Of a DNA stretch of 64,000 nt, positions 10,626 to 64,000 are shown piece by piece. The notes below the pieces were generated by a model that did no database searches, was not told the DNA's origin, and was given only the letters and a program-made list of their open reading frames with translations. Source of the DNA: Marsupella aquatica (lineage: Eukaryota; Plantae; Marchantiophyta); the NCBI GenBank assembly GCA_973895155.1, contig OZ316892.1, positions 1,553,223 to 1,617,222 of the forward strand, read 5' to 3'. Made by a program: the position numbers and the translations under genes. How positions within the stretch are numbered: position 1 is the stretch's first letter; each line of letters starts with the position of its first letter.

Positions 10626-10627
10626 CT

Positions 10628-10970: not shown

Positions 10971-10975
10971 GAAAT

Positions 10976-17460: not shown

Positions 17461-17552
17461 GTCATAGATTTAGTTGCTAGAAGCAAGCTCCGGTGCACCA
17501 AAGTTAGGGCCAAAGTTTCACCGGAGCTTGCTTCTAGCAACTAAGTAAATCT

Positions 17553-24596: not shown

Positions 24597-24751
24597 CTCG
24601 AATTTTGGTTCGAAGAGACCAAGGAACTAAAATGGAAGCGGCAGGAAAGGGGTTGAAGAAGCGCAAGCCGTATCTTCATGTTTCGAGACACCTGCATGCT
24701 CTGAGAAGGGCAAGAGTAATGAGAGGGCGGTTCATGCATACCAAGCAAGGT
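24597..24751 (+). repeat. Inverted copy of the NF-YA core domain (pairs with about 24200-24358)
   Basis: Reads [45 protein letters not shown] on the + strand. Confidence 0.8.
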
Positions 24752-27700
24752 ATAGCCATATATATGCTCCACCATGTAGCTATCACCGTATATATGCTCC
24801 ACCATGCTCATAAGGTACACACGCCAAGGTGCGGGCCATTATCGGTTTATATGGTACCGGCAAGTTTGCATGTGGTACAGGTCCGGGTGATACCGGCATG
24901 TGTGCCTACTGGGCTTGGGCAAGTAAAGCATCGGGGGCTTGCTGCTGAATTGTTTGGATTCGCCCCTCGCAACCCTCGTCCGGGTACTAATTCAGTTATT
25001 GAATGTTCAGTGCCCCTGCACAAAATCAGGTAATAAACAGTGTCACCGTTCTAGTTAGTCTGCCAATTTCAATTTCTCGTGCTGTTGCAGGTCGACGTTT
25101 GGCTGGGAGTGTCGGCAAACGACTTGAGGCCTGGAACATAGGTCGGCCGCGATGTTGACTGCCTTTGTCTGGTATGCATTGAGTTACAATGTAGGAGTCT
25201 GAGCTAGAATTTAAAAAAAGACCTCTATAATCCATAGCAGACTAGATTTTAGCAACACTAACAAACGGAACAAGCCCGAGTTCGCAATCTGTTCAAATTT
25301 CAAATTGATATGGAAAAGATATGTACAAGAATTATGTTAGTTACAATGACGAACGAGGTCACAAGACTAGTCTGCCGAGCCACGATGAGCCACAAGATAA
25401 AATGTTCATCCACTTGTAAACTAGCCGAGGTCGATCACTCGAATCAGACCACCTCCCAGTCGAGCTCTCGTCAATGATCGAGAGCCATCGCAAACGAGTC
25501 CCGCATATACCAACAGCACTCAACTAATAGCCAGGATCGATGAAGAGAGGCCTCTCGATTACTCAAGAAAAGACACAGTGGAAAGCGCGGGGGAAAATTT
25601 GACGGATTAGAGAAAAGAGTGTAGCGTAATCCACTTCAATAACTTTCCCCGATTCCGGGCTCTTCCATAATTGCTGTGCACGTGAAGGATCAGTCGCTAG
25701 AAAACTGCTCTGATTCAGACTATTGCAAAAGCTAGGAACGATTCTTAGTGTCAAGTAATGAAGACGCGATGGGAATTGTCATTTGAAACCGCTGCTGGTT
25801 GCATGGAGTAGAAGTTGCCCAATCTCCATGCCTGACTATTCCGAGGAATGAAACCTGTTCTCCAGCCTTAAATCTCCTTGGAAACAAAAGCTGAATTAAG
25901 AACGGTGGAAGAAACCAAGGACAGTCCAAGAGCAATGTGCACGGCTGTTCTGCGAATAAGATCTAAAGAAGCTAGTACCCTAGACGAACCAATAACAATG
26001 TGAACCACACGTACACAGTACAGAGAAATAGACAGACAAACACACCTCCTACGACGAAAAGGGGCTGCGACTTGCGAGAATGCACTCCACTGGCGGGCCG
26101 GTCTTGCTCATCGAACCAGTGGATCTGCAGCGTTCCATTCGTTAATCCCATAATTGGATCACTCCAGTGTGCAGACTGGCCGGAATCCATGGCCAGCGCG
26201 GGTGAAAACTCAGGCCCTTCACTCGATTACTCTTCTTCGATCTCGAACTCCTTCAGCACTGTTCTTCGATCTCGAACCACGTCCAACCCGACACTACAGG
26301 GTTTGTTACACAAGACTCCTCACTCTGATCAGTCCAGCTCGATGCGTTCTCTCCAATCCCGTCCTCCCACAGAACTTTTCGTCCGTTCTCCAGCTTCCCA
26401 GATGCTCCCGTCGTCGGCAAATTATCATAGCTCAATCGAATCGGCCAGGTAAATCGATCAAAATTTCAGAAGCGAAAGAGAAGAGCTGATCTGAAACTCC
26501 TCCACTCCTCCGCTACCCGTCCTTGGCGTCGTCCTCTGAGCACAAGACTCGATTCAGGACTGTCTGCTGGGTTGCAGTGGCGCGCCTAGCTCCGGCCGAT
26601 CTGATCTAAACCTCGACCGTCTTGTTTCCATCACGGAGGATAACGGAGCATTGTTGCCATCGATCGACAAAGATCAGAGCAGACATAATTAGTAGCTCTA
26701 GCTCGCGCCATCACCCAAGAAAGCAAAAGTGTAATCCGTCGAATCAACGCCGTGGTCAGTTATTGAATGGATTTGAATGGCAGCACCCCACAGCAAAGAA
26801 CGATCAAAGATCACGGAGCATCAATGCCATGCATCGACAATATGACATGCAAAGTGAGTGACACAGAAATGAATGTAGAATCCCTGCATCAAAGCGAAGG
26901 GGGAACCACATCATATAGGACCCGAAGTGACACGTAATGAATGAAGAATCCCTGCATCAAAGCGAAGGGGAACCACATCATATAGGACCCCGAAGGCCAA
27001 ACCCGGGAAACACAGAAACACTAATTGGCACGACAAGTTTGCCAGCCGTGGAAAAGGCGCTGCTAAACAAACGGTCCAGCTTTGAACCAACCAAAAATGT
27101 CGGGAACAAAAAGGAAAGATGTAACGCTGTGACGCTGAAACATCAGAGACAGTCCCGCCTAACTGAAAACGACTACCCAGCTAAGCCAATCCATAACTAG
27201 GCCGTAGCTAGGAGCCAGCAGGTGTGAGAAACAGGAAGAATTGATTCCTGACAGACAGCAATCGGAGCAAAAAGCCACGATTAAAAGGGAACGTTGGTCC
27301 TGGACCATATTTACGTATGAATAGATCTTGAAGCTTCCAACCTGAGGTCCGTTTTAAATACCCAAAAAAAATACCCAAAAAAAAGGACTGCTACCCGGAG
27401 AGAGCGGAAACTTCGGAACTCGGCAAATAATTACTCATATCATCTGGGAGCAATTTGTTCGTAACGGAGTGTGCGGAGTGCACTTAGAAAGTTCGAGTAA
27501 TCTCGAAATAACTGAGAACTCATTCATCTACCCAAACGTGTGTCTCTATCACTAAGACGAAGCCAGAGGGTCTTGCTTAGGAGCTTCAAAACCATCTCTC
27601 AATGTTTTACGTTCATTCTTCTCGGTCCTCTGGTCTGAGCCCTCAACTTATTCGATAGTCACCTCTACTACAAATAGGGCCCTAGTACGCTATAAGCTTG

Positions 27701-28618
27701 AAACCACACTCACTTGTTGACGAGCACTTAATTCTCCTGCAAGGTGAAGAGGGCGATGGAAGGAGTCGGCAAACGAAGTTGGAGAATCGGATATCCTGGC
27801 TACATAATGTCTTTTCTATAGGTCTTTGATATTCAATCGAATTGTCCAACCTACGCAATGTACAAGTCTACCAAAGAATTTTGGGACCTGTAGCAGCATG
27901 GTAACTAAGATCCATTTCAGCACGATCCACAGACACAACTAGCCATCCACAGTTTGACCCCAATCCTCACGGCCTTTGAGAAAATGAAGTCCTACGTGAA
28001 TTTTTTGAACTACGTCATTACACTGCAAATCATCGTCATAAACTGATGTCCTCAGCGCTGAAACAATGTGACAGGTGATCGTCCACCGTAAACTTGGAAT
28101 TCAAAGGTAATGGTCCCTTTATGTTCATTATTAAACCCCGAGAGTGAAACTTTCCGAACCCCGCAGGAACACCGATCATTTCGATGGAATTTATCTTTTC
28201 GGTGAGGGCATGCAGAGGATGGAAGAAACGAGAAAGAAGCTGAGCATGTTTTCAATGGCCCAACTTGGCAGTAAAGCAAAATCACCTCCGACATCGGCAA
28301 CGTCAAAATACTACGAACACTTGCAGCGGGCTGCGAAAAGTGGCGTCACCACACCAAATCCATCTTATTCGACTAGGAGCCATGTAATTAAATCTCCTGA
28401 CATGAAAATTATCGGGCATCTCACATCTATCGATCCCGGAAAAATAGACCAGTGTGGACGATGGAGCCACAGTTAAGTAAGATCGGACTCGTGAGACCTC
28501 CCGAGAAATAAAACCCCAGAGCTCAGCGCCTCCTCACCTCCACATAGGTAAGTATGTTATTGTTTCAAGCATCCGCAAGGTTATTTACTACTACAATTCC
28601 TATACTATGATAGCTAAA

Positions 28619-29302
28619 TTACATTGATGCCTTGTTGCTGTTCACGAACCGCCCTCCTATTCCCCGTGCCCTTCTCTGAGCATGCAAGTGTCTTGACAAG
28701 TGAAGATACGGCCGGCGCTTCTTCGACCCCTTTCCTAACAATTCCATTTTTGCTCTTTGGTCTCTTCGGACCAAAATTCGAGAGTAGCGCAGGGCCGAAA
28801 CCCACAGGAACTCCGGAGGAATTTCTCCGTTGCCATAGCACAATGGGACTAGAGGCATTCGCGCCTGCAGGGCCCGGCGCATGACTACGGCAGGCGGTAC
28901 CTGCCTCGGTACCACCTGCATGTTGGGTGGCTGGGGTTCGAACTGCACCGGAGCTTGGCCCACCGGCGCATCCACCTGGATGTATTGCGGCTGGGGCCAA
29001 ATCTGCACCGGGGATTGGCCCACCGGCGCGTCCACCACCATGCATGCCGGCTGGGGAAAAAGTTGCACTGGAGCTTGGCTCGCCGGCGCGCCAACCACCA
29101 TGTCTGCCGGCGGAGGCCAAAACTGCACCGGAGCTTGGCGCACGGGTGCGTCCACCAGCATGCCTGCCGGCGGAGGCCAAAATTGCACCGGTGCGTCCAC
29201 CAGCATGCCTGCCGGCTGGGGTTGCACGACTGGGGCTAGTGCAACCCGAGCTTTCATAGTGTATTGTCGGTTTCTTTCGAATTCCGCCTGCAAAAAGTTC
29301 AT
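28619..29302 (-). CDS. Divergent intronless NF-YA-like protein with 20-aa Pro/Gln/Val repeats
   Basis: 227-aa ORF with RMPL, YSRILVRRDQRAK and RRPYLHLSRHLHAQRRARGIGGRF. About five xQAPVQFWPPPAGMxVDAPV repeats (60 bp each). Confidence 0.75.
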   Translation of the reverse strand: MNFLQAEFERNRQYTMKARVALAPVVQPQPAGMLVDAPVQFWPPPAGMLVDAPVRQAPVQFWPPPADMVVGAPASQAPVQLFPQPACMVVDAPVGQSPVQIWPQPQYIQVDAPVGQAPVQFEPQPPNMQVVPRQVPPAVVMRRALQARMPLVPLCYGNGEIPPEFLWVSALRYSRILVRRDQRAKMELLGKGSKKRRPYLHLSRHLHAQRRARGIGGRFVNSNKASM

Positions 29303-30588
29303 TATGCGAGAGGAGAAAGTGTGTAATCAGAAAGCTATGAAAGTGGACAAACTGTGTATATCAGAAAGTTATGAGCTCTGTTTAGGTCGAGCGGACAAAC
29401 TCTGTAATCAAAAAGTTATAGGGTTTAAACACTCAAAGTTTCAAAGTTGAATGATAAAGCAAATCACGATGAAACCACAACACAGTTCGACTTTGAAACT
29501 TTTGCTGTGATTCTAAACCGAGAATTAAATTTGGCAAACGCGGAGGGCGTTTTTACTTTTTTGGGAGAGGGGTGGGCACGCGGAGATAAGTGTGGAGCAA
29601 GGGACAAGCAGTCAAGGGGGAGGGAAAGTGCAAAGGCATGGGCCCTCCATGGCAGCCTGGGGCTGCGCAACACCTGTCCATTGCCGTGCGGGGCCCTAGG
29701 TGGCAGGGTGCCATGCAGCAAGTCTATGGGCGGTCTGCTCCAACATTGTCTCATACCGTAATTTTCACCATATTTGGCTGTATCTGGGTTACACTTTTGT
29801 CTTTTATTTCATTAATTTCTTTTCATCTACATTCCTTTCCTTTCTCCTCTTCTCTTTTCTCTCAAATTATTTCCCTTTCTCCCTCCCTTTACCCTTTGTA
29901 TTTTTGGGTTTTCCTCCCTCAATGGCATGTGCTAAGATGGTTGGTTGAAAGCTGGGGATGGCCTCCCCATCCCCTCTCTCCTGTCCACTCTTGTCCCCGG
30001 GTCTGTCTCAAAATTGGGGTGTCGGTGTGTGGAGGACTGATTAAAGCGGTGCGAAATCTGACTGTCTATTTTAGGAACTCAGCTCCCACTAACAGCATAG
30101 CATTTTAATGAAACCCTCTCTAAATCTTCTCAAATCTCACTAAGAAGTTCTGTTAATGCCCATTTAATGTTCATACATGAGTGCCAAAAGTTTTAAACAA
30201 ACAACTTACTTTCATACATTTAGAAAGACAAATATTGATCATAACTCCATGCAATTTTTCTAGTACACAACTCTTTCATTTATATAAGATAAAACAAAAC
30301 ATAGCACCATGCAAGTCAAAAGTTGTCAAGTACTCAACTTTTCCATTCATGAAAAAACAGATTTAAATCAATACACCCTCTAATACACCAATTGATAACA
30401 CCAAGCACCCTAAAGACACAGGCGGCAACAGTATTCCATATCATTCTGACCCTACCAGTGGGGTCAAAGTTGCACCGCTCATGTACTTAGTCACAGCCGG
30501 AGGGTTGCACGACTGAAATAGGAGGCCTACACTCTGCTTTACCCCCGCAATCTATTCTATCCTTTCACTGCAAAGGTTTTGGGGACTC

Positions 30589-30947
30589 TGTCATGCCGAG
30601 GGACAGTGCCTCTTATGCACATCGGCATGTCCCTCGCCTGCCCGCTAGGTATGTAGTTAGGGCTAGTGTACTACCTGAGTTAGCGACATGTTCTTGTAGC
30701 AAGTCTGGGCCATTGTTGAAGCAAATGTGCTTGTTAGTGTGACGCCAGGACTTTGCTTGCTTAGGGCATGTCTTTCTTTGTGGGTTTTTCAGTTCTTCTT
30801 GAATCGTTGTTGACAGAGCTCAGACAATGCTCGTCGGTTCCGTACACGGGATTCACACAGTGATTCGTTAGATGCTCCCGGCCGATCTTGGCATCCTGCC
30901 GGTTTTCGATTCGATTTCAGTACAATTGTTTCTCTTACGCCTTTTAT
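30589..30947 (+). repeat. Terminal repeat A1 (359 bp)
   Basis: Direct repeat of 39817-40175 (about 4 substitutions seen) and of 58868-59225. Confidence 0.95.
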
Positions 30948-31409
30948 TCAAGAAGAACTCGTCGAGATAGTGGTGAGGGGAAGAAGATTGCTTGTGACGA
31001 TTTTGACACTTTTTGGTGAAGCCATTGCAATTTCTTTTACGGACATCGGAGTGACAAGTTAAAAGTTATGGGTTTATTGTGGTGTTATGTGTATACTTAA
31101 GTGTATACACATAACAAGGGGCCCGGATTTTTTTCCCCGGCCGCAACCTTCTTTGTGACCTACATCGACGACTTGCTGCCGACTGCACAGGCCGCTGCGC
31201 CCTCGCTCGCGACCCTTTGGGAGTTCAGGGCCCCTTTTTCGTTAGCTTTTATGGCCATTTCCCGGCCACGGCTGCCGCGCGACTACTTCCCGACGGCATA
31301 GGGCCGCGCGCCCCTTTTCTTTTTGCCTTTCTTACTCGTCTTTTTTTTGCCTCGTCGCCTTGCTATTCCTTCGTTTTGCTTCCTACCGTGGCCGAGCATA
31401 AGCGAGAGA

Positions 31410-31850
31410 GGATGGAGGGCACGAGGCCCTATGGCGCATTAAGAGGAGGGGAGGGGAGTACACATTAAAGCAGGGGGAGTCTCCTGCAGGGCACAGAGCC
31501 CACTGTCAGCATTCAAGGGGAGGGGGAGTTGAAGCGAAAGCAGGGCACGAGGCCCTAGGCAGCTCTGAAGCATTAAAGAGGGGGGGAGTACATTCGACTC
31601 CCTCTCTCGGGAGTCCTCCTGCAGGGCACGAAGCCCTTAATTCAGCTTTAAAGAGGGGGGGGAGTACTCGCGACTCCTCTCTCGGGAGTCCTCCTGCAGG
31701 GCACGAAGCCCTTAATTCAGCTTTAAAGAGGGGGGGGAGTACTCCCAACTCCTCTCTCGGGAGTCACTCGCTGCCAGGGCACAAGGCCCAAAAGGGGGAT
31801 AGGGGGAGCTCATAGTGGGGCACGAAGCCCTATGCAGGGCCCGAGCCATT
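31410..31850 (+). repeat. Hairpin-rich tandem repeats (about 75-bp unit) in the retroelement 5' leader
   Basis: Repeated AGGGC-ACGA(A/G)-GCCCT and GACTCC-tctctc-GGGAGTC motifs with G-runs. A similar array lies at 59870-60250. Confidence 0.75.
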
Positions 31851-34800
31851 AAGTTGTCACCTCGCCTCAGCCTCGCCTCGCCCTGCAGCATAGGGTACCG
31901 TGCCTCCCGAGTGTGCGTACACCTGCTTCTTTCCGGCCTCTTTTTCTTCCAGGGAGCCCGACGATGTATCCACATTGGGTACCGACCGGTACCCTTTATG
32001 TGTATACACAGACCCCTGTCTATACACATCGGAGGCCCCTTTTGGCCATTTCCTCTTGTTTCTTTCCATTCATTTTCTTGTGAGCATATTTTCGGCAGGG
32101 CCGGTCTACACATTTCTGCCTCGCAGTGTTGTTTCCTTTGTGGGTTACATTTCATAGCCTTGGGGTTGCCACACCTTTTTCTTGTCAGTTTCTTTCCTAT
32201 TGGCACCCCGGGTGAGCATGCAGCATGTCAGCAGAGGAGCCGAGTCGTAGCAGCTCATCGCCACCGACACCCCGGTACCACTTACGGAGTGATCCACGAC
32301 CGTTGGTGCCAATTTCATTGGAGTCTCGGCAATTTCGACGACGTCCGCAGACAGCAGCAGCACCCACACCACGCAATCCTCCTGCTACATTTGGCGGTCG
32401 CTTCACCACTACTCCGAAGCCTGCTATCACTTCATTGCCATTTACCCCTTCTGCATCAGTGGTTGTTCCTGCTTCACCGACATACAGCATGGATGCCAGC
32501 CACTCATCTGGCCGCATTGAGTGCTTCAGCGGGCGGCCAGGCACTGTCTCTTTACGTGAGTTCAAATCCACTTTCTACACTGTCGTTTACGAATTGGAGT
32601 TGAAGTACGGCAGCAATTTCACAAATGCGTTTGCATTTAAGCAGCTAGCCAGGTATGTGCACCATGAGGCTTTAGATGTGTATGAGCAGCACTCTCAACG
32701 GCTGCTTGCTGTCACACAGTTGCCTAACCCTACCTATGCCAGTGCAATTGCGGCAGCTTCACAATTGGCCTTACAAAATGCCATTGCAGCCCATGCTGCT
32801 ACTCCTGCCACTTCCCCTCCTACTCCAGTTCCTACCACTGCGCCCGTTACTCCCACTGTCTTGGCACAGGCTACATCAGGCATTTCTCCCACCATTGATT
32901 CCCTTGCCTTTGCTGATCCAGTGGCTGAGTTTTTCCAGGTTCTTGAATTGGAATTCCCAATCAAGAGTGCTGACAAAATCATGCAGTTGGCCACCTTTGT
33001 GAGGCAGCGCGATGAAACCTTGAAGATGATGTATCGCCGGCTTCTCAAGCTGAAGGAGGACACCCAGAGCATCACTGACCTGGAAGCTGCTCATCGCTAT
33101 CTTCGCGCATTGGAGGGCACACCAGCTCTCCATTCGCAAGTGTTGCAGCAAGTATTCTCAGAGTTTGGAGACAACTACACCCTGCTCAATGTCTATGACA
33201 CTGCTGAGAAACTTGAGTTGGCCCATGCACATTATGAGGCCAGTATTGCGCGTCCACCGCGATCCAGGTACCAGGCTGCTGCCCCTACACTGGCCACCCC
33301 TTCCCGAGTGCCACAGTATGGTTCCAAGACCAAGCCAGCCCATGTTGCTTTCATGCTGCCATCTTGCAACTACTGTGGTAACCCCAATCACAAAGGCTAA
33401 TGAGTGTGATATTGTTGCTGAGGACCTGTCTTGTGATTTTTGCGGGAAAGTGGGTCACTTGGAGGCAGTTTGTTTTGCCAAATTCCCAGAGCGGAAGCAG
33501 CTACGACAACAGGCCCCTCATCCTACTCCTGCTTCCACTCCCCCACCAGCTAGGAGGGCTCCTACTGCATCAGTTGCTCCTCCTTCCAATGGCAAAGCAA
33601 CCAGTGCCAACAAATTGCCTAAGCAACCACAGAAGCAACCCGCTCAGAAGGAGGCTCACAACGCACAGGCAACTCAACTCCAGTCTCTGACTCATGAGGT
33701 TGAGTCCTTACGTGCCCAACTTGCCAACATCAAAGGCAAGTCCACTGCCTCTGCTGGTCCTTCTCAACCGGCTGGTCACGTGCAACCCATCCCTAGCCCA
33801 GGCACCGCTGACAGTTCAGCACCTCTACCCCGCTCTTTCTATGGCTTACCATTTGATGCTCATATGGGTGAGTGTGTGCTGTCCTCTGCTCCACAACCTG
33901 GCCTTACAGCAGAATTTTCAGATTCATTCTGCCCTTCCCTATTTTGCTTACCAGCAGGCCAGTGCTGCCTCCCGTATTGCTCCCACACGCCGCATTGTAC
34001 AGGCTGATGGTCTTGCTGCCGGTCCTCTGACTAGAGCCAGGGGCGCTCGGGCTGTCATGCCCCAATCTTTTCAGCCACTCACACTTGCTGAAGAGCGCAC
34101 CTTGTTGGCGAGGGGGGAGGGAGCTGCAGCTACATCCATTCCACCACCAGGTGCTGCTGACATTTCACAGGGAGTTGTTTCTCCTGAGCTGCTTGAGCAT
34201 TTCACCTCCGGTATGGCACAAAGGATTCTTATATCTCCACTTTTCAGTTGCCATGATTTACAGCTGGATGCTAGAGCTGTCATCAGAGCGCTAGAGGGCT
34301 CACTACATTCTTCATCAGCCCCTGTGACACCGGTTTTGGAGGTCCAATCTCATGTACATACTGGACCTTTTTCTTCTCCTTTACATGTTCCCACTGGTTT
34401 GGCTACCCCAATACCGATTGCTGCTGATTGTGTGACCAGAGCTACACTTGATTCTGGTCATGCTGCTCCATCTTTCCTGGCTATGTTGTTGAGTGGAAAG
34501 ACCGTGGACACTAACTCCCTTCACAAGGTACCTCATCATTTGCCAAGAGTGGTGCCTAGTGACAGGACTTCAGTTTCCACCACCATTGCCATTGTTGACA
34601 ACAGGAATTCAGTGGTCAAGTTGGAGGGTCACACTCCTCAGGTGGTCATGCTAGACACAGGTGCTCAACCAGTGATATTGGGCATTCAATTTGCCAAGAA
34701 GATGGGACTGTTGACTGATCATTTACAGCAATCCAAGTGGCACATTCGGACTGCTAGTGGCACTGTGGAGGATGTGCTGGGTGAGAGTTCTACTTTACTC

Positions 34801-35316
34801 ACTCTCACTTTTAATGGAGGTACAGACCAGGAACTGCATTTCCCAGTCAGATGTTTGGTTACCAATGTCACTACGTATGATGTGCTCATTGGCCAGGAGG
34901 CTTTGTTCCCACCAGGTTTTACCATTGACAACTGGCATGAGCATGCATACTACAGAGTTGATTGGCATACTGATGGCTCACACTTGGGCTACATTCCACT
35001 TGATTTGCATGGTGCCCATACACCTATGGCTCACCACTGTGTGTTGAAAGCAGTGCACACAGCTACCTATGTCAACCACCCATTGCAAGATTGGATTGAG
35101 GAGGATGACGATGAGGTGGCTGCTGTACATGCTGCTGCACGTATAGCAGCACTTTCCAGCAACGTGGATCATCAACCAGAGGTGGTACAACGGCTCCAAG
35201 CAGCCCATGGACCTTTGGTGGCTACATTGCGCAAGTTTGAAGACCTTGGGCAGCACAATGGACAGCCAATAGCCCCAATCTTGAGCGCACCAGTTAAATG
35301 GACTCCTCCTTCAGAT

Positions 35317-36307
35317 GGCCTTACATTGCTTGAGCTTTTTGGTGACATTTCTACAGGCCTGGAAGCTCTCCTACAGTCTGGCATGGTGGTGAAGCAGTAC
35401 ATCTACGTGGACATTGATCCAAGTGCAAGGCAAGTGGCTGAATCCCGTCTGCTGGAATTTTCCGAGCGATTTCCCCAGCAGTTTCCACATAGTGCATGGA
35501 AGTCTGCATTTTCTTTCTTCCCTCCAGACATCCAGCTTGTCCAGCATCGGCACTTAACCCTTCTTGGCTCCCTTGATTTGATCATAGCTGGTTGGGAATG
35601 CCAACGGTTTTCAGCTGCTGGTCACGGTGCTGGACTGCATGATTCTCGTTCTGGCCTTTTCACAGCATTGGTTCAGATTCTCACCTGGGCTCAATTCCTT
35701 TATCCTGCTGTTGGTTATATCATTGAGAATACTCCATCTCAGTTTGACCAGCGTCCACAGGTCAAAGAGGATTTCAGTGTGGTCCACCACTACTTGGGAC
35801 CACCCCTTCTCATTGATGTAGTGCATTGTGGTTCTTATGCACATCATCTTCGTAACTTTTGGACTAACCTTGCACCACCTTCCTACTTTAGCTCTTCACC
35901 ACACATCCAGGGACACTAACCTCATAGTGGACCAGATTTTGGATCCTGACAGTTCTTGCCAACCGGTTACACGGCAAGAGCCAGCACCTTGGTATCCACT
36001 CGGGTATCCAGCTAATACCATTGGACAGCCCCGTGCTGCTTGGCCTACTTTTGTGTCCTTTCCATGTGCACATGCTTTTCAAGGTGATGGTCCTGGCCTG
36101 GTTTATCGACATTCTACCGGTACATGGGATGAACCTAGTCCTGAGGAGAGAGAACGGGCTATGGGCTTCCAACCCGGTACTACAGGTCACACCAAAATCA
36201 CCAGACTGGCCAGGATTGCTTTACTTGGCAAGGTAATGGATCTTAATGCTCTCACTTGGCTTCTGGTCACTTGCATCCTTTTTCAGATGTACATTCATCC
36301 AGCATAA
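35317..36307 (+). other. C5-cytosine DNA methyltransferase domain inside the polyprotein
   Basis: Motif I LELFG(D/G)ISTG, II YVDID, IV DLIIAGWECQRFSAAG (Cys retained) followed by GLHDSRSGLF, VI IIENT, VIII AHHLRNFWTN, IX EPSPEERERAMGF, X RIALLGKVMD. Confidence 0.88.
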
Positions 36308-39300
36308 GGAGTGCCAGCCCTACCACTCCATGGTGCTGCTACATGGCATCCAGACCAGGTGCACTTACCTCTGTCCAACACTCACCACTTCAGTCCAAGT
36401 GTTGGGGGGAGGAGGTCCCTTGTAATGTGGCTGACATTATTTCTGAGTTTCATGGTGTGGATCAGACCAGAGCAACAGATACAGCAGGCCTTGGAGTGGC
36501 CTCATCACCTTATCAGCAGCATGCTAGCAGCTTGGACAGTGGAGAGGCTGGCACTTCTGGCTCTTCAAGCACGAGTACATCAGGTCCTATTCCTAGTGTT
36601 GCCAACTACACATTCATCATGGGCAACCACCTGAGTTAAAGACAGAAGGACCAGCTGCTGAATTTGCTCCTCAAGCATGAGAATGTGTTTGCTTTCTCTA
36701 TGAAGGACTTGGGTAAGTGCAAGACTATGCAATTCTCCATTGAGTTGGCTGATGAAACACCTATCTTTAGGCGGAGACACCATTTGAGTAAGCATGAGTG
36801 GCAGCTGGTGGATGAGAGATGCCAAGAGCTCTATGAAGCTAGTCTTATTCAGCCATCTACATCAGATTTTGCAGCAGCTACAGTGATGCCAGCAAAAAAG
36901 GATTCTAGTGGATTGTGGACAAAGAAGCGCATGTGTGGGGACTACAGGCCACTGAACCTGGTCACACCCCAAGACAGGTACCCCATGCCACGACCAGAGG
37001 AGCTATTTGACAGCATTGGAGACTCAGACATCTTCACTCTTGTGGATCTAAGGCAAGGCTTTAACCAGATTTTGCTGCTTGCAAAGGACCGCAAGAAAAC
37101 AGCTTTCCATGGTAGTAAACAACTATGGGAGTGGTTGGTGATGCCATTTGGCTTGAAGAATGCGCCCATATTCTTTCAAAGAGTCATGGACCAGGTTCTT
37201 CAAGGTGCTGAGTTTCTGAAATGCTACATTGATGATGTGTTGGTCCATAGCAAAGGATTTGACCAGCATCTACTTGACCTTGAGGAGCTATTCATGAGGC
37301 TTAAGAAGGTGAACCTAAAGATACACCCCAAGAAGTGTGAATTTGCTGTCAGATCAGTAGTATACCTTGGGCACCGCATTCTTCCAAATGGAACCATGGC
37401 TCACTGGGCCAAGGTGGTATCCATCTTGGAAATGCCCACCCCTACCGATGTTCACACTTTGAGGAGTTTTATTGGGTTGTGCAATTACTACCGGATCTAC
37501 ATCAAAGATTTCAGTACCATTGCACACCCATTGTATGCTTTGTTGAAAAAGAATGTGACTTGGACATGGAGTACAGATGCTGAGGCAACATTTGCCACTT
37601 TGAAGGAGAAGCTCTCAGAATACCCAGTGCTGAGAAGACCTGATTTCAGCAAGGTCTTTGTGCTACACACAGATTGGAGTGCCCTTGGGATTGGTGCCAT
37701 TCTGGGCCAGCATGATGAGGAAGGTAAAGAGTACGTCATTGCCTATGCATCCAGGAGCAACAATCAGGCAGAGAGTCATTATTCTTCTTATGAGGGTGAA
37801 TGCCTTGCTGTTGTGTGGGCTGTCATACATTATAGGCCCTACCTCTATGGGACCAGGTTTGTTCTCTACACCGACCACCAGCCCTTGAAGTGGTTGATGA
37901 CCAATGACAAGCTTACTGGCAAGCTTGCTCGTTGGGCGCTCATACTCCAGGAGTATGATTTTGAGGTAATTCATAGGCCTGGTGTGACACATCAGAATGC
38001 TGACACTATGTCCCGCAGCCCTTTGATTACCTCTGATGATTCCTCAGATGCACGGCAAGATTTTGACCAGGTTTCCATCCTGCCTACATTTCATGCATCG
38101 ACCTATCTTGCTTTGCTGCCATGCTATGTTGTTGACCAACCTGTGGTGGACATATGGGAGGATAGCGACACTCTGAGATTTCTGCAGCATGGGGAGTACC
38201 CCACACATGTTACTGCTGCCCAGAGAGACCAAATTCAGCAAAGGTCCAAGCGCTACTTGTGGAAGGGAGATCATCTCATGCGCTGCTTGCCAGACAGGGA
38301 AGTGGTGGTTCCACCCATTCATGAGAGGGTTGGCCTTATCCGTAAGGTACATTCTGAGCTTGGTCATTTTGGCGTTAAGAGGACTTACAGCCTCTTGGTC
38401 CCTCATTATCATTGGAGAGGCATGCATGGCCAGGTTCGAGATGTTATTGCCCGGTGTGAACAGTGTGATAGGGTGAGGACTTCTTTCACATCTCGGCAAC
38501 CCACACTTCATCCACTCCCTATTCAGGGCATGTTTTATCGCTGGTCATGTGATTTGGCTGGAGAATTACCCCTCACATCTCGGGGTAATCTCTACATCAT
38601 GATCATGATAGAGCATTTCTCCAAGTGGATAGAACTTGTGGCATTGCCGGATAAGACCTCCCGTAGCACCAGCCAGGCATTCCTGCAACAAGTTCTCAGC
38701 CGCTTTGGAGCTTGTGCAGAATGTCTCACTGACCAGGGCTCAGAGTTTAGAGGAGAGTTCCAGGAGCTGCTTGATCAGGCCCTCATTGATCATCGCCGGA
38801 CATCACGAGATCACCCACAGGCAGATGGCTTGGCAGAGCGCATGGTTCAGACATGCAAGAAGGGTCTCCGGAAGATCTGCCTCACCAAAAACAAGGAGGA
38901 TTGGGACCTGGCCTTACCCTACATTGCCATGGGGTATAGGATGTCCAGACATGCATCACTGTCTAACTTTTCTCCCTACTTCTTGTTGTTTGGTCGTCAC
39001 CCAGTTCCACCTTCTGCTATTGCTGCTCACATGCTTCAGGTGGTGGACTTGGATTCAGCTGTGACTTGGTCTGATGTGATCTCTGAGAGGGCTGCCCTAT
39101 TCAGGAGGGTTATGCCCATGGCCATGGAGAATTTGGCCATTGCACAACACAGGGACATACTGCGTTATGCACACACACGAGGGGGCACTTTTTAGCCCAA
39201 GGTCAGGAAGTTTGATGTGGGAGATTTTGTGTACTTGCAGCGGCAAGCTAACGACACCCTGGACACCTCTACCAGTCGTACTATTCTCAGGGTTAAAGCT

Positions 39301-39438
39301 ATTCGACCGTCTGGAGTGCTAGAGTTACAAGGGGCAGATGGGCGCACAATTGCTGACAATGCCAAGAACTGCGCCCCTTGTCATCTGCCTAACCTAGATC
39401 CCACCATTGTGACTTCTACTTGGATTCCACCTGTGGAC

Positions 39439-39597
39439 TACCCTTGCAAGGTGTGTTTGCGAATTGATGATGCTGACCAGATGCTGCTGTGTGACAATTG
39501 CAATGGAGGGTACCATCTTTTCTGCCTTCGGCCTGAACTTACCCAGGTGCCAGAAGGGTTATGGTTTTGCCCTTCTTGTGCTCCACGTGCTACCTGA
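39439..39597 (+). other. PHD finger at the integrase C-terminus
   Basis: CKVC..DDADQMLLCDNCNGGYHLFCLRPELTQVPEGLWFCPSC (C4HC3 pattern). Same frame as pol beyond one premature TAG. Confidence 0.9.
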
Positions 39598-39638
39598 ATT
39601 TTCTTCAGCCCTTCTTTTGGCTGTGGTCTGGGGGGGGG

Positions 39639-40351
39639 ATACAGAGGTTTACACCTCCACTACGTACATACCACTTCATTTGCTTTTTCTTGGCACTTGT
39701 GAATGTGATTGGACTTTTTCTATGCATGTTGGTTGCTAGCAGCTTGCACATATGCCTTGCCGGTGACTTGTATGTTTTTGATACACTATGGCTACGATAC
39801 TATATGTCACGACAGCTGTCATGCCGAGGGACAGTGCCTCTTATGCACATCGGCATGTCCCTCGCCTGCCCGCTAGGTATGTAGTTAGGGCTAGTGTACT
39901 ACCTGAGTTAGCGACATGTTCTTGTAGCAAGTCTGGGCCGTTCTTGAAGCAAATGTGCTTGTTAGTGTGACGCCAGGACTTTGCTTGCTTAGGGCATGTC
40001 TTTCTTTGTGGGTTTTTCAGTTCTTCTTGAATCGCTGTTGACAGAGCTCACACAATGCTCGTCGGTTCCGTACACGGGATTCACACAGTGATTCGTTAGA
40101 TGCTCCCGGCCGATCTTGGCATCCTGCCGGTTTTCGATTCGATTTCAGTACAATTGTTTCTCTTACGCCTTTTATATACAGAGGTTTACACCTCCACTAC
40201 GTACATACCACTTCATTTGCTTTTTCTTGGCACTTGTGAATGTGATTGGACTTTTTCTATGCATGTTGGTTGCTAGCAGCTTGCACATATGCCTTGCCGG
40301 TGACTTGTATGTTTTTGATACACTATGGCTACGATACTATATGTCACGACA
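39639..40351 (+). repeat. 3' terminal repeat block B1-gc-A2-B2
   Basis: B (176 bp, ATACAGAGG...CACGACA) occurs on both sides of A2. A G9 tract sits immediately before B1. Confidence 0.95.
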
Positions 40352-40363
40352 ACTCTACCCCCG

Positions 40364-45332: not shown

Positions 45333-45810
45333 TGGTCTGTTCGTGCCAAGCACTGACGATAACCCTGGTCAGGGGCAGACTGATTACCCAGGTCTGTGCG
45401 TTCCAAACGTGAGGTAATGATAACCCTGGTCAGGGAGCAGAATGATAACCCTGGTTTGTGCGTTCCAAGTGTGAGGTGATGACAACCCTGGTCTGCGCAC
45501 GCCAAACTTGAGGTGACAATAACCTACAGTAGTCAAGAGAAGAATGATAACCGTGGTCTGTTCACGCCAAACTTGAGGTGACAATAACCCTGGTCGGGAG
45601 CAGAATGATAACCCGGGTCTGTGTGCGCAGAGAGTGAGGTGACGACAGCTGTGGTCAGGAGCAGAATGTCACCCCTGGTCTCATTCTGTGCGGGCCGAAA
45701 CGTGAGGTGATGATAGCCCCTGGTCAGGCGCAACCCGAGTCTGTGCGCGCCGAACGTGCGGTGACGATAACCCTGGTCAGGCGCAGAAAGATAACCCTGG
45801 TGCGTGCGCA
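45333..45810. repeat. Minisatellite, about 45-65-bp degenerate units
   Basis: Repeated GTCTGTGCG..CCAAAC.TGAGGTGA..ATAACCCTGGTCAGG.GCAGAATGATAACCC. Confidence 0.85.
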
Positions 45811-46571
45811 GCGCCGACGGACCAGTCGCTGACAAGGACGTTAAGGACGTCTGGGCTTGGTCTTCTTGAGGAAGCACAACAAAGGCAACGAAGAGGGTGT
45901 GCTTTCGTCGGAGAGAGACGGAGACTCGACTAGTGGTGTTTGTGCTTCTTCGGCACAAGAAACCCAAAGAAACACGCTGCGATTGATTCACAGAGAGACG
46001 AGATTAGTAGTGGTAATACAGCAGTCGCACAAGAAACGCAACCACGACGCTTGATTACTTCAGAGGTGCTTCATTGGCACGAGAACAGAAAACCACGAGA
46101 ATAGAAAACCAAGAGGCTGTGCTTTCTTAGAGAGACAGACGAGAGTAGTAGTGCTGCTTCTTCTCGCGAAGTCGCGTGGTGGCCCACTTATGCCTGTCGA
46201 TGATCATCTGGACACAGTAGTTTCCGCGGAGAGACACTGGTCTGGCGGAGTTCGTTCGGCTTGTTGTTACACTACTCTCCTGCCGTGGACTGTAGAGAGA
46301 TGACAGACTGAAGCGTTTTGCTGATTCTCGTTGTCGAATTATTCGGCCGTTTGGTGTAAAGAAATTGGACGGACTGCCGAAGTCTTGAAGTTTGGGTCTT
46401 CCTAAGCGCTTTGGTGAGCATTCGCTGTTTAACGCTTCCGTCGAGTCTTGTAAAGGGATTCGTTCGTAATAATAATTCGTTCGCCGTGTGGAGGAGGAGC
46501 GATCGCGCACAGAAGCTTGCATTCCGGCTTGCAGAGAGGGAGAGAGAGAGAGTGGGGTTAAGGGAGGAAAA

Positions 46572-47393
46572 ATGGACCAGATGACGGATAGGCCTCGCAT
46601 GTTGGCAGTTCGGATGGAAAATGATTATGATGGAGGAAGAGATGTGGCGGTCTTGGACTGTGGTGGTCTATGTTTCTCGCAAAATTGGAGGGGGGATGCC
46701 ATCGGTACCGGCGGAGGAGAAAGAGGAGGTTCGGCATTACCGTTGACAGAACCGGAAATGATCGTGAGTCTTTCTCAAGAGAGCGAATTGGTCCAGGGGA
46801 GCCAAGAGGCACAGCAAAGGGGAACGACGGAATGGCCGGAGGATTCTGAACGTGGTCGAGGAAGCAGAGGAGGAGCGAACAGGAACAACCGAGTGGCTCT
46901 CAACGTGGGTGGAAAACGGTTCGAAACGTCCATCGAGACGCTGAGTTTTGATGGATGCTCAATGTTAGCGGCCATGGTAACACGGCACATGCGAAATGAA
47001 GACGACGCCATTTTCATCGATCGAGATCCCACGAGGTTCAAACATGTGGTGAATTATCTGAGGAGCCAAACGATCTGGCTGGACAATTTGTCCGATTTGA
47101 GAGCTGTTCAGGAAGAGGCGGACTTCTTCAATCTCAGTGGTCTGTACAAGCTCTGCGAGGAGAGAATACAGGAAGTCCTGCGTGTGAAAGATGAGCACCA
47201 TGAGGTGCTAGAGCTAAAGAGTACTTTGAAGGCTATGATGGACGAGCTGAGGGGGAGTTTCAAGATGGTGTCCGGGTTTGACAATCACAAATCGAATCAG
47301 CAGAGAAAGGAACCGATCTTGGGTGTCCGAAGACGGCGTCTGGAGTACGAGAGTTTGAATGATCCTGTCTTTCGGATGGATGAGGACTTTTAG
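46572..47393 (+). CDS. BTB/POZ (KCTD/T1-type) domain protein, intronless
   Basis: RVALNVGGKRFETSIETL...FIDRDPTRFKHVVNYLRS...EEADFFNLSGL. First in-frame ATG at 46572. Confidence 0.85.
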   Translation: MDQMTDRPRMLAVRMENDYDGGRDVAVLDCGGLCFSQNWRGDAIGTGGGERGGSALPLTEPEMIVSLSQESELVQGSQEAQQRGTTEWPEDSERGRGSRGGANRNNRVALNVGGKRFETSIETLSFDGCSMLAAMVTRHMRNEDDAIFIDRDPTRFKHVVNYLRSQTIWLDNLSDLRAVQEEADFFNLSGLYKLCEERIQEVLRVKDEHHEVLELKSTLKAMMDELRGSFKMVSGFDNHKSNQQRKEPILGVRRRRLEYESLNDPVFRMDEDF

Positions 47394-50120: not shown

Positions 50121-50481
50121 AAGTATTTAGTTTTACAATGTGAAGCCAAAAGGGTTCTAACTATGTACATTTCTATCGATTGGTTTTTTTAAACTTGCAA
50201 ACAATCAAAATATATACAAGGATTTTGATGTAAAACACTAATATATCATTGACAAACATCAAAATGATAACTTTATTATACGGCTACAGTGAAAAAAATG
50301 ATATCTCTTCCTTTGTATTCTGTTTTTTTACGCTTAATACTTATGGCATAGTGCCCCATAATTTACTCGAATATGGACACAAACATGAAAAGTCCCTTTT
50401 TGTTTTGCTGCTCTGTCCTGTTTGTCACCATCCTCGCTGATGTGGCGCACTTTTGTGAATGGGTTAATGAGCCTACTAGGA

Positions 50482-58867: not shown

Positions 58868-61800
58868 TGTCATGCCGAGGGACAGTGCCTCTTATGCACA
58901 TCGGCATGTCCCTCGCCTGCCCGCTAGGTATGTAGTTAGGGCTAGTGTACTACCTGAGTTAGCGACATGTTCTTGTAGCAAGTCTGGGCCGTTCTTGAAG
59001 CAAATGTGCTTGTTAGTGTGACGCCAGGACTTTGCTTGCTTAGGGCATGTCTTTCTTTGTGGGTTTCCAGTTCTTCTTGAATCGCTGTTGACAGAGCTCA
59101 GACAGTGCTCGTCGGTTCCGTACACGGGATTCACACAGTGATTCGTTAGATGCTCCCGGCCGATCTTGGCATCCCGCCGGTTGTCGATTCGATTTCAGTA
59201 CAATTGTTTCTCTTACGCCTTTTATTCAAGAAGAACTGTGTGGTGAGAGGAAGAAGATAGGAGACATTCTCGTTTCAGCTGCTTAAGTTGGTACATACAA
59301 TTTCCGTCGAAGCCGGTGCAATTTCTTTGAGCAGCATAGGAATGGCGGGTTAAGAGTTATGGGTTTTAATGTAGTGCTATGTGTATAAGTATACACATAA
59401 CATCGCCGTTTGAGTCCGTGCTTTGTTCCCGGCTACATTTGTGACCCCTTTCTGCTATGTGCTCCTTCTTACTGTCACTGCCGCTTGCTGCCTCGACTGC
59501 TTTTGGGGTCATTTTTGCATTCCCGGCCACGGCTGCCGGCGAGTTTCCCTTGACTACCGCGCGATCACCTCGCGACTACCTCCCGAGCGCACAGAGCCAC
59601 GGGTCCGTTTGCTTTTTGCCTTTTTCCGGTCGCGACCTGCTGCCACCCAATTTTTCTTCCCGGCCATCGTTTCTTCTCGACTTCTCGCCTTCCCTCGCAG
59701 TTATTGTCGCGAGCTTGGGCCCTGGGTATACACATGCGGGGCTCATCATTGCCCCTGGGTCACGCATAGGGCCGTGCGCCCTCCCTTCGGCATTTTTTTT
59801 CTTCCTCCCTCGCTTGTTGCCAGCAATTACACAGTAGGGAAGGGGGATTAAGTTTAGGCATAAGCATGGAGAGGGCACGAGGCCCTATTCTGCATTAAAG
59901 CAGGGGCAGGGGGGAGCCAAGTACAAGCGAAAGCAGGAAGGAGGGGGACCGAGTGTTAGGAGAGGGCATGCAGCCCTATGTTGCATTAAAGGCCCTAAGC
60001 AACATTGAAGCAGGGGAGTACATTCGACTCCTCTCACAGGAGTCTTTTGCAGGGCACGAAGCCCATAAAGCAGCATTAAAGAGGGAGGAGGGGGAGTACA
60101 CTCGACTCCCTTCCCTTCGGGTACACTGTCACCAGGGCACGAGGCCCAATTTCATTAAGGAGGGGAGGGGGAGCTCGTAGCTTCCCTTCGGAAGCTCTTA
60201 AGGTGGGGCACGAAGCCCTATGGGGGGGCTCATGCCATTAAAGAGGGCCCGGTTTGGCCCGGTTTCTTTCGCCTCGCCTCCCGCATGTCTCTCTTTTCTT
60301 TCAGCCGTCGTCTTTCCTCCCGCCTCACAACGACCTGCATAGGGCCTCCATGGGCTGTGCATAGGGCGCCGTGCCCTGGGTGTGTTTACACACTCGGCCG
60401 GTTCCTGTGAGGACGATTTTGCTGCTGACGCGCGCCTGGCCTCTTTTCTGTCGAGCTTGCCAGTTCCCGGGTCCACATCGGGCCCCGACATATACACTTA
60501 ACGGGGTCCCATGTTTATACACTTAATTAAAGGGGCGCCCAATGTCTTCACGTTTTTAAGGGTCCTTTTTCTCTGACGGATTTTCGACGTTGACGGTTCT
60601 TCAACGTATTTACACATTTGGTACATTACCTGAGTACATCGGGTACTGCCACACAGCATGTCAGCAGACGAGCCGGGAAGTAGTAGCACATCGCCACCGA
60701 CACCCAGGTACGATTTACGGAGTGATCCACGACCATTGGTGCCAATTTCATTGGAGTCTCGGCAATTTCGATGACGTCCACAGACAGCAGCAGCACCCAC
60801 ACCATGCAATCCTTCTGCTCCATTTGGCGGTCGCTTCACCACTACTCCCAAGCCTGCTATCACTTCATTGCCATTTACCCCTTCTGCATCAGTGGTTGTT
60901 CCTGCTTCACCGACATACAGCATGGATGCCAGCCACTCATCTGGCCGCATTGAGCACTTCAGCGGGCGGCCAGGCACTGTCTCTTTATGTGAGTTCAAAT
61001 CCACTTTCTACACTGTCGTTTACGAATTGGAGTTGAAGTACGGCAGCAATTTCACAAATGCATTTGCATTTAAGCAGCTAGCCAGGTATGTGCACCACGA
61101 GGCTTTGGATGTGTATGAGCAGCACTCTCAACGGCTGCTTGCTGTCACACAATTGCCTAACCCTGCCTATGCCAGTGCAATTGCAGCTGCCTCACAATTG
61201 GCATTACAGAATGCCATTGCAGCCCATGCTGCTGCTCCTGCCACTTCCCCTCCTACTCCAGTTCCTACCACTGCGCCAGTTACTCCCACTATCTTGGCAC
61301 AGGCTACATCAGGCATTTCTCCCACCATTGATTCCCCTGCCTTTGCTGATCCAGTGGCTGAGTTTTTCCAGGTTCTTGAATTGGAATTCCCAATCAATTC
61401 AAGAGTGCTGACAAAATCATGCAGTTGGCCACCTTTGTGAGGCAGCGCGATGAAACCTTGAAGATGATGTATCGTCGGCTTCTCAAGCTGAAGGAGGACA
61501 CCCAGAGCATCACTGACCTGGAAGCTGCTCATCGCTATCTTCGTGCATTGGAGGGCACACCAGCTCTCCATTCGCAAGTGTTGCAGCAAGTATTCTCAGA
61601 GTTTGGAGATAGTTACACCTTGCTCAATGTCTATGATACTACTGAGAAACTTGAGTTGGCCCATGCACATTATGAGGCCAGTATTTCGCGTCCACCGCGA
61701 TCCAGGTACCAGGCTGCTGCTCCTACAATGGCCACCCCTTCCCGTGTGCCACAGTATGCTTCCAAGACCAAACCAGCACATGCTGCTTTCATGCTGCCAT

Positions 61801-64000
61801 CTTGCAACTACTGTGGCAATCCTAATCACAAGGCTAATGAATGTGATATTGTTGCTGAGGACCTGTCTTGTGATTTTTGCAGGAAAGTGGGCCACTTGGA
61901 GGCAGTTTGTTTTGCCAAATTCCCAAAGAGGAAGCAGCTACGACAACAGGCCACTCATCCTGCTCCTGTTTCCACTCCCCCACCAGCTACGAGGGCTCCT
62001 ACTGCATCAGTTGCTCCTCCTTCCAGTGGCAAAGCAACCAGTGCCAACAAATTGCCTAAGCAACCACAGAAGCAACCCGCTCAGAAGGAGGCTCACAACG
62101 CACAGGCAACTCAACTCCAGTCTCTGACTCATGAGGTTGAGTCATTACATGCCCAACTTGCCAACATCAAAGGCAAGTCTATTGCCTCTACTGGTCCTTC
62201 TCAACCGGCTGGTCACGTGCAACCCATCCCTGGCCCAGGCACCACTGACAGTTCAGCACCCCTACCCCGCTCTTTCTATGGCTTGCCATTTGATGCTCAT
62301 ATGGGTGAGTGTGTGCTGTCCTCTGCGACACAGCCTGGCCTTACAGCAGCATTTTCAGATTCATTCTGCCCTTCCTATTTTGCTTACCAGCAGGCCAGTG
62401 CTGCCTCCCGTATTGCTCCCACACGCCGCATTGTACAAGCTGATGGTCTTGCTGCTGGTCCTATGACTAGAGCCAAGTGAGCTCGGGCTGTCATGCCCCA
62501 ATCTTTTCAGCCACTCACACTTGCTGAAGAGCGCACCTTGTTGGCGAGGGGGGAGGGAGCTGCAGCTACATCCATTCCACCACCAGGTGCTGCTGACATT
62601 TCACAGGGAGTTGTTTTTCCTGAGCTGCTTGAGCATTTCACCTCCGGTATGGCACAAAGGATTCTTACCACTCCACTTTTCAGTTGCCATGATTTACAGC
62701 TGGATGCTAGAGCTGTCATCAGAGCGCTAGAGGGCTCACTACATTCTTCATCAACCCCTGTGACACCGGTTTTGGAGGTCCAATCTCATGTTAATACTGG
62801 ACCTTCTTCTTCTCCACTGCATGCTTCCACTGGTTTGGCTATCCCAGTACCGATTTCCAGTGGTAGAGATGACAGTATTGCTACAGATTGTGTGACCAGA
62901 GCTACACTTGATTCTGGTCATGCTGCTCCATCTTTCCTGGCTATGCTATTGAGTGGGAAGACCATGGACACTAACTCCCTTCACAAGGTACCTCATCATT
63001 TGCCAAAAGTGGTGCCTAGTGACAGGACTTTAGTTTCCACCACCATTGCCATTGTTGACAACAGGAATTCAGCAGTCAAGTTGGAGGGTCACACTCATCA
63101 GGTGGTCATGCTAGACACAGGCGCTCAACCAGTAATCTTGGGCATTCAGTTTGCCAAGAAGATGGGATTGCTGACTGATCATTTATAGCAATCCAGGTGG
63201 CACATTCGGACTGCTAGTGGCACTGTGGAGGATGTGTTGGGTGAGAGTTCTACTTTACTCACTCTCACTTTTAATGGAGGTACAGATCAGGAACTGCATT
63301 TCCCAGTCAGATGTTTGGTTACCAATGCTACTACGTATGATGTGCTCATTGGCCAGGAGGCTTTGTTCCCACCAGGTTTTACCATTGACAACTGGCATGA
63401 GCATGCATACTATAGAGTTGATTGGCATACGGATGGCTCACACTTGGGATACATTCCACTTGATTTGCATGGTGCCCATACCCCTATGGCTCACCACTGT
63501 GTGTTGAAAGTAGTGCACATAGCTACCTATGTCAACCACCCATTGCAGGATTGGATTGAGGATGAGGTGGCTACTGCACATGCTGCTGCACGTGTAGCAG
63601 CACTTTCCAGCAACGTGGATCATCAACCAGAGGTGGTACAACGGCTCCAAGCAGCCCATGGACCTTTGGTGGCTGCATTGCACAAATTTGAGGACCTTGG
63701 GCAGCATAATGGACAACCAATGCCCCCAATCTTGAGCGCACCAGTTACCTGGACTCCTCCTTCAGATGGCCTTACATTGCTTGAGCTTTTTGGTGGCATT
63801 TCTACAGGCCTGGAAGCTCTCCTAAAGTTTGGCATGGTGGTGAAGCAGTACATCTATGTGGATATTGATCCAAGTGCAAGGCAAGTGGCTGAATCCCGTC
63901 TGCTGGAATTTTCAGAGCGATTTCCTCAGCAGTTTCCACACAGTGCATGGAAGTCTGCATTTTCTTTCTTTCCTCCAGATATCCAGCTTGTCCAGCACCG
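58868..64000 (+). mobile_element. Second copy of the MTase-carrying Gypsy-like element (5' part; runs past the window end)
   Basis: Begins with repeat A (58868-59225) and no B. Gag from about 60658, protease MLDTGAQ near 63110, MTase motif I LELFGGISTG near 63780. Has stops and frameshifts. Confidence 0.92.

Follow-up and report, generated by a model that had tools for sequence, protein, structure and literature searches.

A decayed Ty3/Gypsy retrotransposon with a conserved DNMT3-type methyltransferase domain in the liverwort Marsupella aquatica

The element and its surroundings

We analysed a 64,000-nucleotide stretch of the Marsupella aquatica genome, referred to throughout as the window. 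A Ty3/Gypsy element occupies positions 30589-40351, arranged in the order target-site duplication (TSD), repeat A1, coding region, polypurine tract (PPT), repeat B1, the bases gc, repeats A2 and B2, and TSD; it begins with TG, ends with CA and is flanked by a 4-bp duplication. The Gypsy order of protease, reverse transcriptase (RT), RNase H and DDE integrase is present, and the best solved relative of the RT-integrase piece is the Gag-Pol of Ty3 (E 1.6e-91). A C5 cytosine methyltransferase domain (DNMT) lies between protease and RT. The features of this element (copy 1) and of a second, partial one (copy 2) are as follows.

30585..30588 (+), left 4-bp target-site duplication ACTC; the same four bases stand at 40352-40355
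30589..30947 (+), repeat A1, starting with TG; predicted promoter end and R-U5; differs from A2 at 4 of 359 nt
30791..30804 (+), predicted start (5' end) of the RNA, serving as self-primer; its 14 nt pair without mismatch with 30946-30959, a complementarity matched by 0 of 500 shuffles
30946..30959 (+), predicted primer-binding site (PBS) of the self-complementary type at the edge of A1, pairing with 30791..30804
32216..34007 (+), Gag with zinc knuckles, with frameshifts near 33392 and 33937; tblastn with P0002
34615..34905 (+), aspartic protease, LDTGA at 34651; PF13975, E 1.8e-6
35302..36304 (+), DNMT3-type C5 cytosine methyltransferase domain, with motif I, motif VIII and frameshift lesions; assigned from PF00145, motifs, profile and fold
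36901..37956 (+), RT (YIDD at 37225) and RNase H; PF00078, E 6.5e-29, and PF17917, E 2e-38
38314..39192 (+), DDE integrase with H2C2 finger, stop at 39193; PF17921 and PF00665
39445..39579 (+), C-terminal PHD finger of the integrase; PF00628, E 8.7e-13
39630..39638 (+), PPT of nine G, abutting B1; a G tract is likewise placed in loci L004, L006, L011, L014 and L018
39639..39814 (+), repeat B1, ending with CA; differs from B2 at 0 of 176 nt
39813..39818 (no strand), CA-GC-TG palindrome where B1 meets A2, predicted to be cut by integrase; the junction is also in L011 and L018
39817..40175 (+), repeat A2, from repeat comparison with A1
40176..40351 (+), repeat B2, ending with CA, from repeat comparison; the A2/B2 joint is the predicted site of joined cDNA ends
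40352..40355 (+), right target-site duplication ACTC, equal to the left copy
58868..64000 (+), second copy, with A repeat, gag, protease and the start of the DNMT at 63753, running off the end of the window; 94% identity over 3355 nt

The first piece of Gag gave no Pfam match, and copy 2 gives a weak zf-CCHC match. After the integrase the Pfam search returned no chromodomain, and the PHD finger stands there instead. Searches with Rfam and ARAGORN found nothing.

Given the near-identity of A1 and A2 and the full identity of B1 and B2, the insertion is young. Copy 1 is dead: it has lost the motif I glycine and the first motif VIII arginine, and frameshifts or stops interrupt gag, the DNMT and the stretch after it, and the integrase. 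The arginine lesion, a histidine codon at 35845-35847, was absent from the first-pass annotation. A stop at 36305, a frameshift at about 36403 and a stop at 36637 sever the DNMT from RT. Since contigs of four sequencing runs read otherwise at the motif I, motif VIII and DNMT frameshift sites, these lesions look private to copy 1.

The rest of the window is rich in other repeats. A minus-strand Copia element with a broken Pol and 345-bp LTRs (3965-4309 and 10627-10970, 98% alike) appears to be inserted in a PIF/Harbinger transposase gene, pieces of which lie at 3358-3981 and at 10944-11510, the latter with PF04827; this Copia also has a solo LTR at 1202-1549, and a Myb-like ORF at 11938-13017 (-) faces this locus. 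At 22817-28441 a pair of direct repeats, each about 1180 bp and 96% alike, encloses a fragment of an NF-YA gene (PF02045, 24446-25033), and this may be a non-autonomous element that has captured part of a gene; related sequence, with tandem units of 60 bp, follows at 28555-29195. A nested inverted repeat of about 2 kb at 16555-18594, with arms 85-98% complementary, is either a foldback element or a hairpin-RNA locus. Tandem arrays occupy 45358-45811 (units of about 61 bp) and 50448-51543 (about 234 bp), and the likely host genes are a BTB/POZ protein at 46572-47393 (+) and an mTERF protein at 54091-55677 (-). In the Atlas the mTERF gene is placed in Streptophyta only, at a recognition score under the threshold, and two host ORFs found no exact match.

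The methyltransferase domain and its relatives

The domain in copy 1 matches PF00145 (E 1.7e-6, 28.1 bits; Pfam curated cut-off 22), and the seven motifs named in the first-pass annotation were located in canonical order at 35329-36241: motif I, LELFGDISTG (35329-35358); II, YVDID (35404-35418); IV, DLIIAGWECQ (35575-35604, catalytic Cys codon at 35599-35601); VI, YIIENT (35716-35733); VIII, SYAHHLRNFW (35833-35862); IX, PSPEERERAMGF (36134-36169); and X, LLGKVMD (36221-36241). Its description of the frame was also accurate, in that motifs I to VIII share the protease frame (33691-35919) and motifs IX and X lie in the frame 35822-36307, past a frameshift near 35884-35888. Copy 2 carries FGGISTG where copy 1 has lost the second glycine, as had been noted, and the copies differ at 3 of 81 residues.

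A family profile built from 11 sequences and compared with solved chains finds DNMT3A first (E 4e-20, 75 bits), then DNMT3B, a DRM2-type enzyme (9e-10) and HhaI (2e-7). An AlphaFold (AF2) model of the domain of a relative, P0003 (pLDDT 84.9, pTM 0.87), has DNMT3A/B as its best Foldseek match (E 1.6e-16) and aligns by VIA-align to DNMT3A with Z 27.8 over 270 residues at 2.7 A, and to HhaI with Z 23.9. The motif order is unpermuted. By closest solved sequence and by predicted fold the domain is of DNMT3 type, and its origin is likely to be a DNMT3.

Other C5 methyltransferases have a proline before the catalytic cysteine where most members of this family have glutamate. There is no Pro-Cys dipeptide in copy 1, which has Glu-Cys, and the first-pass annotation had described this WECQ loop as unusual. 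The loop is indeed present, but it is the usual one of the family: among the 289 of 313 homologs that cover motif IV, W is found in 255, E in 219, P in 55 and the catalytic Cys in 287. The remaining catalytic residues are nearly invariant across the 313 homologs (motif VI Glu in 281/292, the motif VIII arginines in 261/283 and 246/282, the motif I glycine in 221/222), and more so in the 132 proteins with the DNMT between RNase H and integrase (Cys 132/132, Glu 131/131, each motif VIII Arg 131/132). W-P-C and W-E-C loops both occur with the same catalytic set, and going by these alignments W-E-C is the family norm, not decay. An intact version exists in a liverwort; in Calypogeia fissa CAM6101866.1 (P0364) Gag, protease, DNMT and the start of RT lie in one open frame with all motifs intact, and P0001, which falls in the same cluster, shares 76% identity with the N-terminal DNMT part in the window. 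A single frame runs through to RT in P0364, P0331 and P0005.

Substitution patterns indicate that the domain is under purifying selection. Over 74 DNMT codons copies 1 and 2 show 7 synonymous and 3 non-synonymous changes (omega 0.12). Between the window and eight representative JGI loci chosen from 19 returned, pS in the DNMT is 0.74-0.77 (saturated) and pN 0.20-0.29, like that of the protease (0.19-0.25) and above that of RT (0.12-0.15); Ka/Ks is 0.05-0.09 in the 3 of 8 loci where dS is computable. Among decayed JGI copies omega runs higher for the DNMT (0.26-0.72) than for RT (0.26-0.58). Differences between subfamilies comprise 11 synonymous and 9 non-synonymous changes, where neutrality would give a synonymous share of 0.24-0.31 (p 0.003-0.02), using 36 of 40 listed differences out of 70, a listing that favours well-supported rows; the four left out lay at an indel, had no X2 cover or occurred in one run only. 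The ratios are not near the value of 1 that the first-pass annotation had linked with neutral capture, and its two other refuting conditions, absence of a PF00145 match and a consensus without the catalytic Cys, Glu and Arg, do not hold either. Neutral capture of a fragment of the host, or a coincidental resemblance, finds support in the broken state of copy 1 and in a Pfam match spanning only about 50 profile positions. We consider it extremely improbable: 511 clusters score E <= 1e-30 in a library at 50% identity, pN stays near 0.2 where synonymous sites are saturated, and the full DNMT3 fold is present in the P0003 model. Selection, the number of clusters and the conservation of catalytic residues together refute it.

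Homolog searches matched 19 of 974, 1234 of 7999 and 65 of 7995 candidates. Members identified by name come from the bryophytes Calypogeia fissa, Sphagnum magellanicum, S. compactum and S. jensenii, and from the algae Closterium, Haematococcus, Chromochloris (from a gene label) and Monoraphidium. No protein named as Klebsormidium was among the homolog matches or the 28 proteins looked up. One family member, P0157, carries the NCBI label of a 'Minisyncoccia bacterium' MAG, and is probably a binning contaminant. Among 89 candidates from prokaryote genome contigs there were two short matches, to motif II only, and plasmids gave five weak matches; IMG/VR yielded no match to the RT pattern and four matches to an 18-nt junction sequence without any element domain. 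The JGI locus L019 proved spurious (a 26-residue match). In the titles and abstract openings covered, to which subscription papers mostly did not belong, neither a Gypsy-DNMT3 element in bryophytes or chlorophytes nor an explanation of the repeats was found. As far as these sequence matches go, bryophytes, Closterium and chlorophytes extend the range beyond the alga of the papers found. The central claim of the first-pass annotation, a C5 methyltransferase in Gypsy Pol, such as had been described in a charophyte, is borne out: the domain is real, under selection, and present in land plants as well. Its proposal of an old streptophyte lineage holds as to charophyte and land-plant members, but the range is wider, with named chlorophyte relatives that carry the domain between RNase H and integrase.

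This placement separates two types. Among the 313 proteins the DNMT follows protease or precedes RT in 33 and follows RNase H or precedes integrase in 133, one protein counting in both groups; 148 are too short for its placement to be assigned. The named bryophytes and Closterium are of the protease-DNMT-RT type and the named chlorophytes of the RNase H-DNMT-integrase type. One branch splits the two in FastTree trees (of 7 + 1 proteins and of the first 28 of 67 proteins), with support 0.999 for RT and 0.947 for the DNMT. An IQ-TREE analysis of 37 rows, three phage methyltransferases among them, puts the chlorophyte type (100/98) beside a bryophyte group (96/94), inside the protease-DNMT-RT type. 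These topologies suggest that the domain was captured once and relocated once. The DNMT tree does not mirror host phylogeny and its outgroup branch is long, so that old paralogy and horizontal transfer both fit.

As to the source of the captured domain, a phage C5 methyltransferase in place of a host DNMT3 has some points in its favour. Phage enzymes resemble the N-terminal part at 28-29%, with E values as low as 5e-9, and the family profile gives them 62-64 bits, about 11 below DNMT3A; the nearest Atlas clusters are viral or bacterial PF00145 proteins. DNMT3A, however, at 75 bits, aligns through the recognition region and motifs IX-X, which the three phage proteins do not, and in the published tree, as described, the Klebsormidium domain falls within a divergent clade of Dnmt3 (PMC5890265). 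We regard a phage origin as unlikely.

Terminal repeats and a predicted route to integration

The repeats of the element depart from the ordinary LTR pattern. Pairing of the predicted RNA start with the edge of A1 has counterparts elsewhere: in L005-7 (one insertion) and in L013 a TATAAAAG box is followed some 30 nt further down by a different 15-nt self-pair, which none of 500 shuffles reaches in either case, and in relatives both partners differ from those in the window yet still pair. Self-pairing in L010 is weak, at 10 nt, and is reached by 11 of 500 shuffles. The A and B repeats of the window gave no blastn alignment to 18 JGI loci, and relatives were compared by way of the repeats of L011. 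The CA-GC-TG B/A junction is common to the window, L011 and the chlorophyte-type L018, with 18 identical nucleotides between window and L018, and L001 has it in decayed form. A comes after B in 4 of 6 readable 3' ends. We rejected an origin of the B-A-B layout by tandem duplication, as layout and junction recur in L011 and B-gc-A in L018.

Two loci end differently. In L006 (2555-11587) the form is A-coding-B with a matched 4-bp duplication, CATA, and L014 (up to 7680) likewise ends at B1; L006 is either a separate integration product or a deletion between B1 and B2. In L018 (2-4147) a long open frame encodes DNMT, integrase, PHD finger and about 320 further residues, has a W-P-C loop, and is followed by PPT, B, the CA-GC-TG junction and A.

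A simple scheme would account for this arrangement. The RNA would prime itself with its first 11-12 nt, as in Tf1; a 12-nt primer would set one cDNA end exactly at the meeting point of A2 and B2, and the PPT before B would fix the other. From established LTR biology the linear cDNA would then read [B gc A]-coding-[B gc A], with ends that are not TG...CA. If these ends were joined, integrase could cut the internal palindrome as CA^GCTG, giving CA-3' ends with 2-nt overhangs. Joined ends with the first palindrome cut would yield A-coding-B-A-B, and cutting of both palindromes, or a 1-LTR circle, would yield A-coding-B, as in L006. Self-priming signal, PPT and palindrome in combination suggest, we infer, integration from a circle cut inside the LTR. 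Counting against this route, a symmetric cut also predicts the mirror product A-B-A-coding-B, a form seen in 0 of 5 independent 5' ends. The repeat anatomy nonetheless offers a concrete explanation for DIRS-like ends on a Gypsy element with a DDE integrase, and LTR finders that expect two identical LTRs would probably mis-annotate such elements.

Proposed role of the enzyme and comparison with known systems

What copy 1 preserves is a dead Gypsy element with a conserved DNMT3-type domain in Pol, and, in line with what the first-pass annotation had inferred, we think it fairly probable that working copies methylate CpG sites in their own cDNA before insertion. The domain is part of Pol, the catalytic set is whole across the family, the closest resemblance is to DNMT3, and SymbioDIRS-Dnmt3 domains methylate CG in yeast, according to their published description (PMC5890265). 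Packaged with Pol, the enzyme would meet the cDNA first; a new copy would arrive CG-methylated, the mark would be maintained by the host, and it would either shield the intermediate or damp the new copy.

Base composition was considered as proof of self-methylation and rejected. CG observed/expected is 0.30 in the coding region of the element (CHG 1.17) and 0.63-0.65 in the flanks, and the element has 7 NCG codons of 366, the Copia 25 of 195 and the Harbinger transposase 2 of 65. The Harbinger control is equally depleted and the JGI relatives also lose CHG, so the loss of CpG is not specific to the element.

This lack of specificity also fits a domain retained to bind DNA or flip bases, on either the cDNA or the circle, while transferring few or no methyl groups, as do glutamate in place of proline in 219 of 289 homologs and the inactivity of the Klebsormidium domain in yeast. 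In that assay KnitGypsy-Dnmt3 gave no methylation, DNMT3B also failed, and the authors call the result inconclusive (PMC5890265). Against a binding role, the SAM-loop glycine, the cysteine, the glutamate and both arginines are nearly invariant in long open frames, and W-P-C and W-E-C loops share one catalytic set; we judge such a role improbable.

The nearest solved relatives of the PHD finger are those of WSTF, CHD4, the KDM5 family, BAZ2B and ATXR5. Most of these fingers read unmethylated H3K4, and the ADD domain brings DNMT3A to nucleosomes with unmethylated H3K4. The enzyme might accordingly have host DNA as its target, at the insertion site or near it, or else work in trans on other copies, with the PHD finger leading it to such nucleosomes; in the chlorophyte type the DNMT lies directly before the integrase. 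In the window type, however, RT and RNase H lie between DNMT and integrase, and the DNMT is likely to be cut away. The K. nitens methylome, moreover, is described as resembling that of land plants (PMC5890265), and we give action on host DNA a low probability.

Returning to methylation of the element's own cDNA, a broader synthesis joins it to the circle scheme: an ancient green-plant Ty3/Gypsy lineage, from chlorophytes to liverworts and mosses, that would prime itself without tRNA, pass through an obligate circle cut at the LTR palindrome, and use an active W-E-C DNMT3 to methylate that circle, so that insertions are born CG-methylated. We put this forward tentatively, as less likely than not. 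An element of this kind in liverwort and moss genomes, with a recent insertion in the window, makes the role of a retrotransposon DNMT testable where methylation pathways are known.

Several known systems share parts of this anatomy. To our knowledge, Tf1/Sushi and Tcn1 elements have no DNMT and possess ordinary LTRs. Tf1 primes with its own first 11 bases (PMC7175516), and Tf1/Sushi and the plant Tcn1 chromoviruses are described as Ty3/Gypsy elements with a PBS complementary to the ~11 bases with which the RNA begins (PMC7175516, PMC6317226), like the window element, which differs in having no chromodomain and a PHD finger after the integrase. The words 'methyltransferase' and 'PHD' do not occur in the main text of the REXdb paper (PMC6317226). 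Retroviral integrases are reported to cut palindromic 2-LTR junctions, and circles can feed integration (PMC1905944, PMC4372172); there, by these accounts, the palindrome arises where the two ends meet and the route is a minor one, whereas here the palindrome lies inside the LTR and cutting it would be the sole way to a replication-competent copy. The EpiLTRs of Cymbomonas and Euglena likewise combine a DNMT and a chromatin reader in an LTR retrotransposon, but their enzyme is DNMT4-like and accompanied by DAM and a chromodomain, and the preprint sets them apart from streptophyte Gypsy-DNMT3 elements (bioRxiv 10.64898/2026.05.21.726589); in the preprint text covered, land plants are not named beside 'streptophytes (Gypsy-DNMT3)'.

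SymbioDIRS-Dnmt3 of Symbiodinium resembles the window element in a Dnmt3 inside Pol, split direct repeats and two domain orders, but has a tyrosine recombinase without a DDE integrase and is described as an independent capture (PMC5890265). DIRS elements are reported to make no TSD (PMC8969392). With a DDE integrase and a 4-bp duplication in the window element, assignment to DIRS/Ngaro was rejected.

The closest counterpart is KnitGypsy-Dnmt3 of Klebsormidium nitens, reported from that one alga and described as an acquisition in its lineage (PMC5890265). Both have Gypsy domains, an unrearranged, intronless Dnmt3-related domain in the Pol frame, a DNMT under purifying selection (Ka/Ks < 0.2 in that report) and DIRS-like A-coding-B-A-B repeats. 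The text of that paper covered here, figures aside, does not mention the W-E-C loop, the PHD finger, self-priming or CA-GC-TG, and the family in the window is also found in liverworts, mosses, Closterium and chlorophytes. Judged by its features as set against the published description, the window element belongs to the KnitGypsy-Dnmt3 kind, and the shared A-coding-B-A-B repeats, which the first-pass annotation had not noted, are the best link to the published family.
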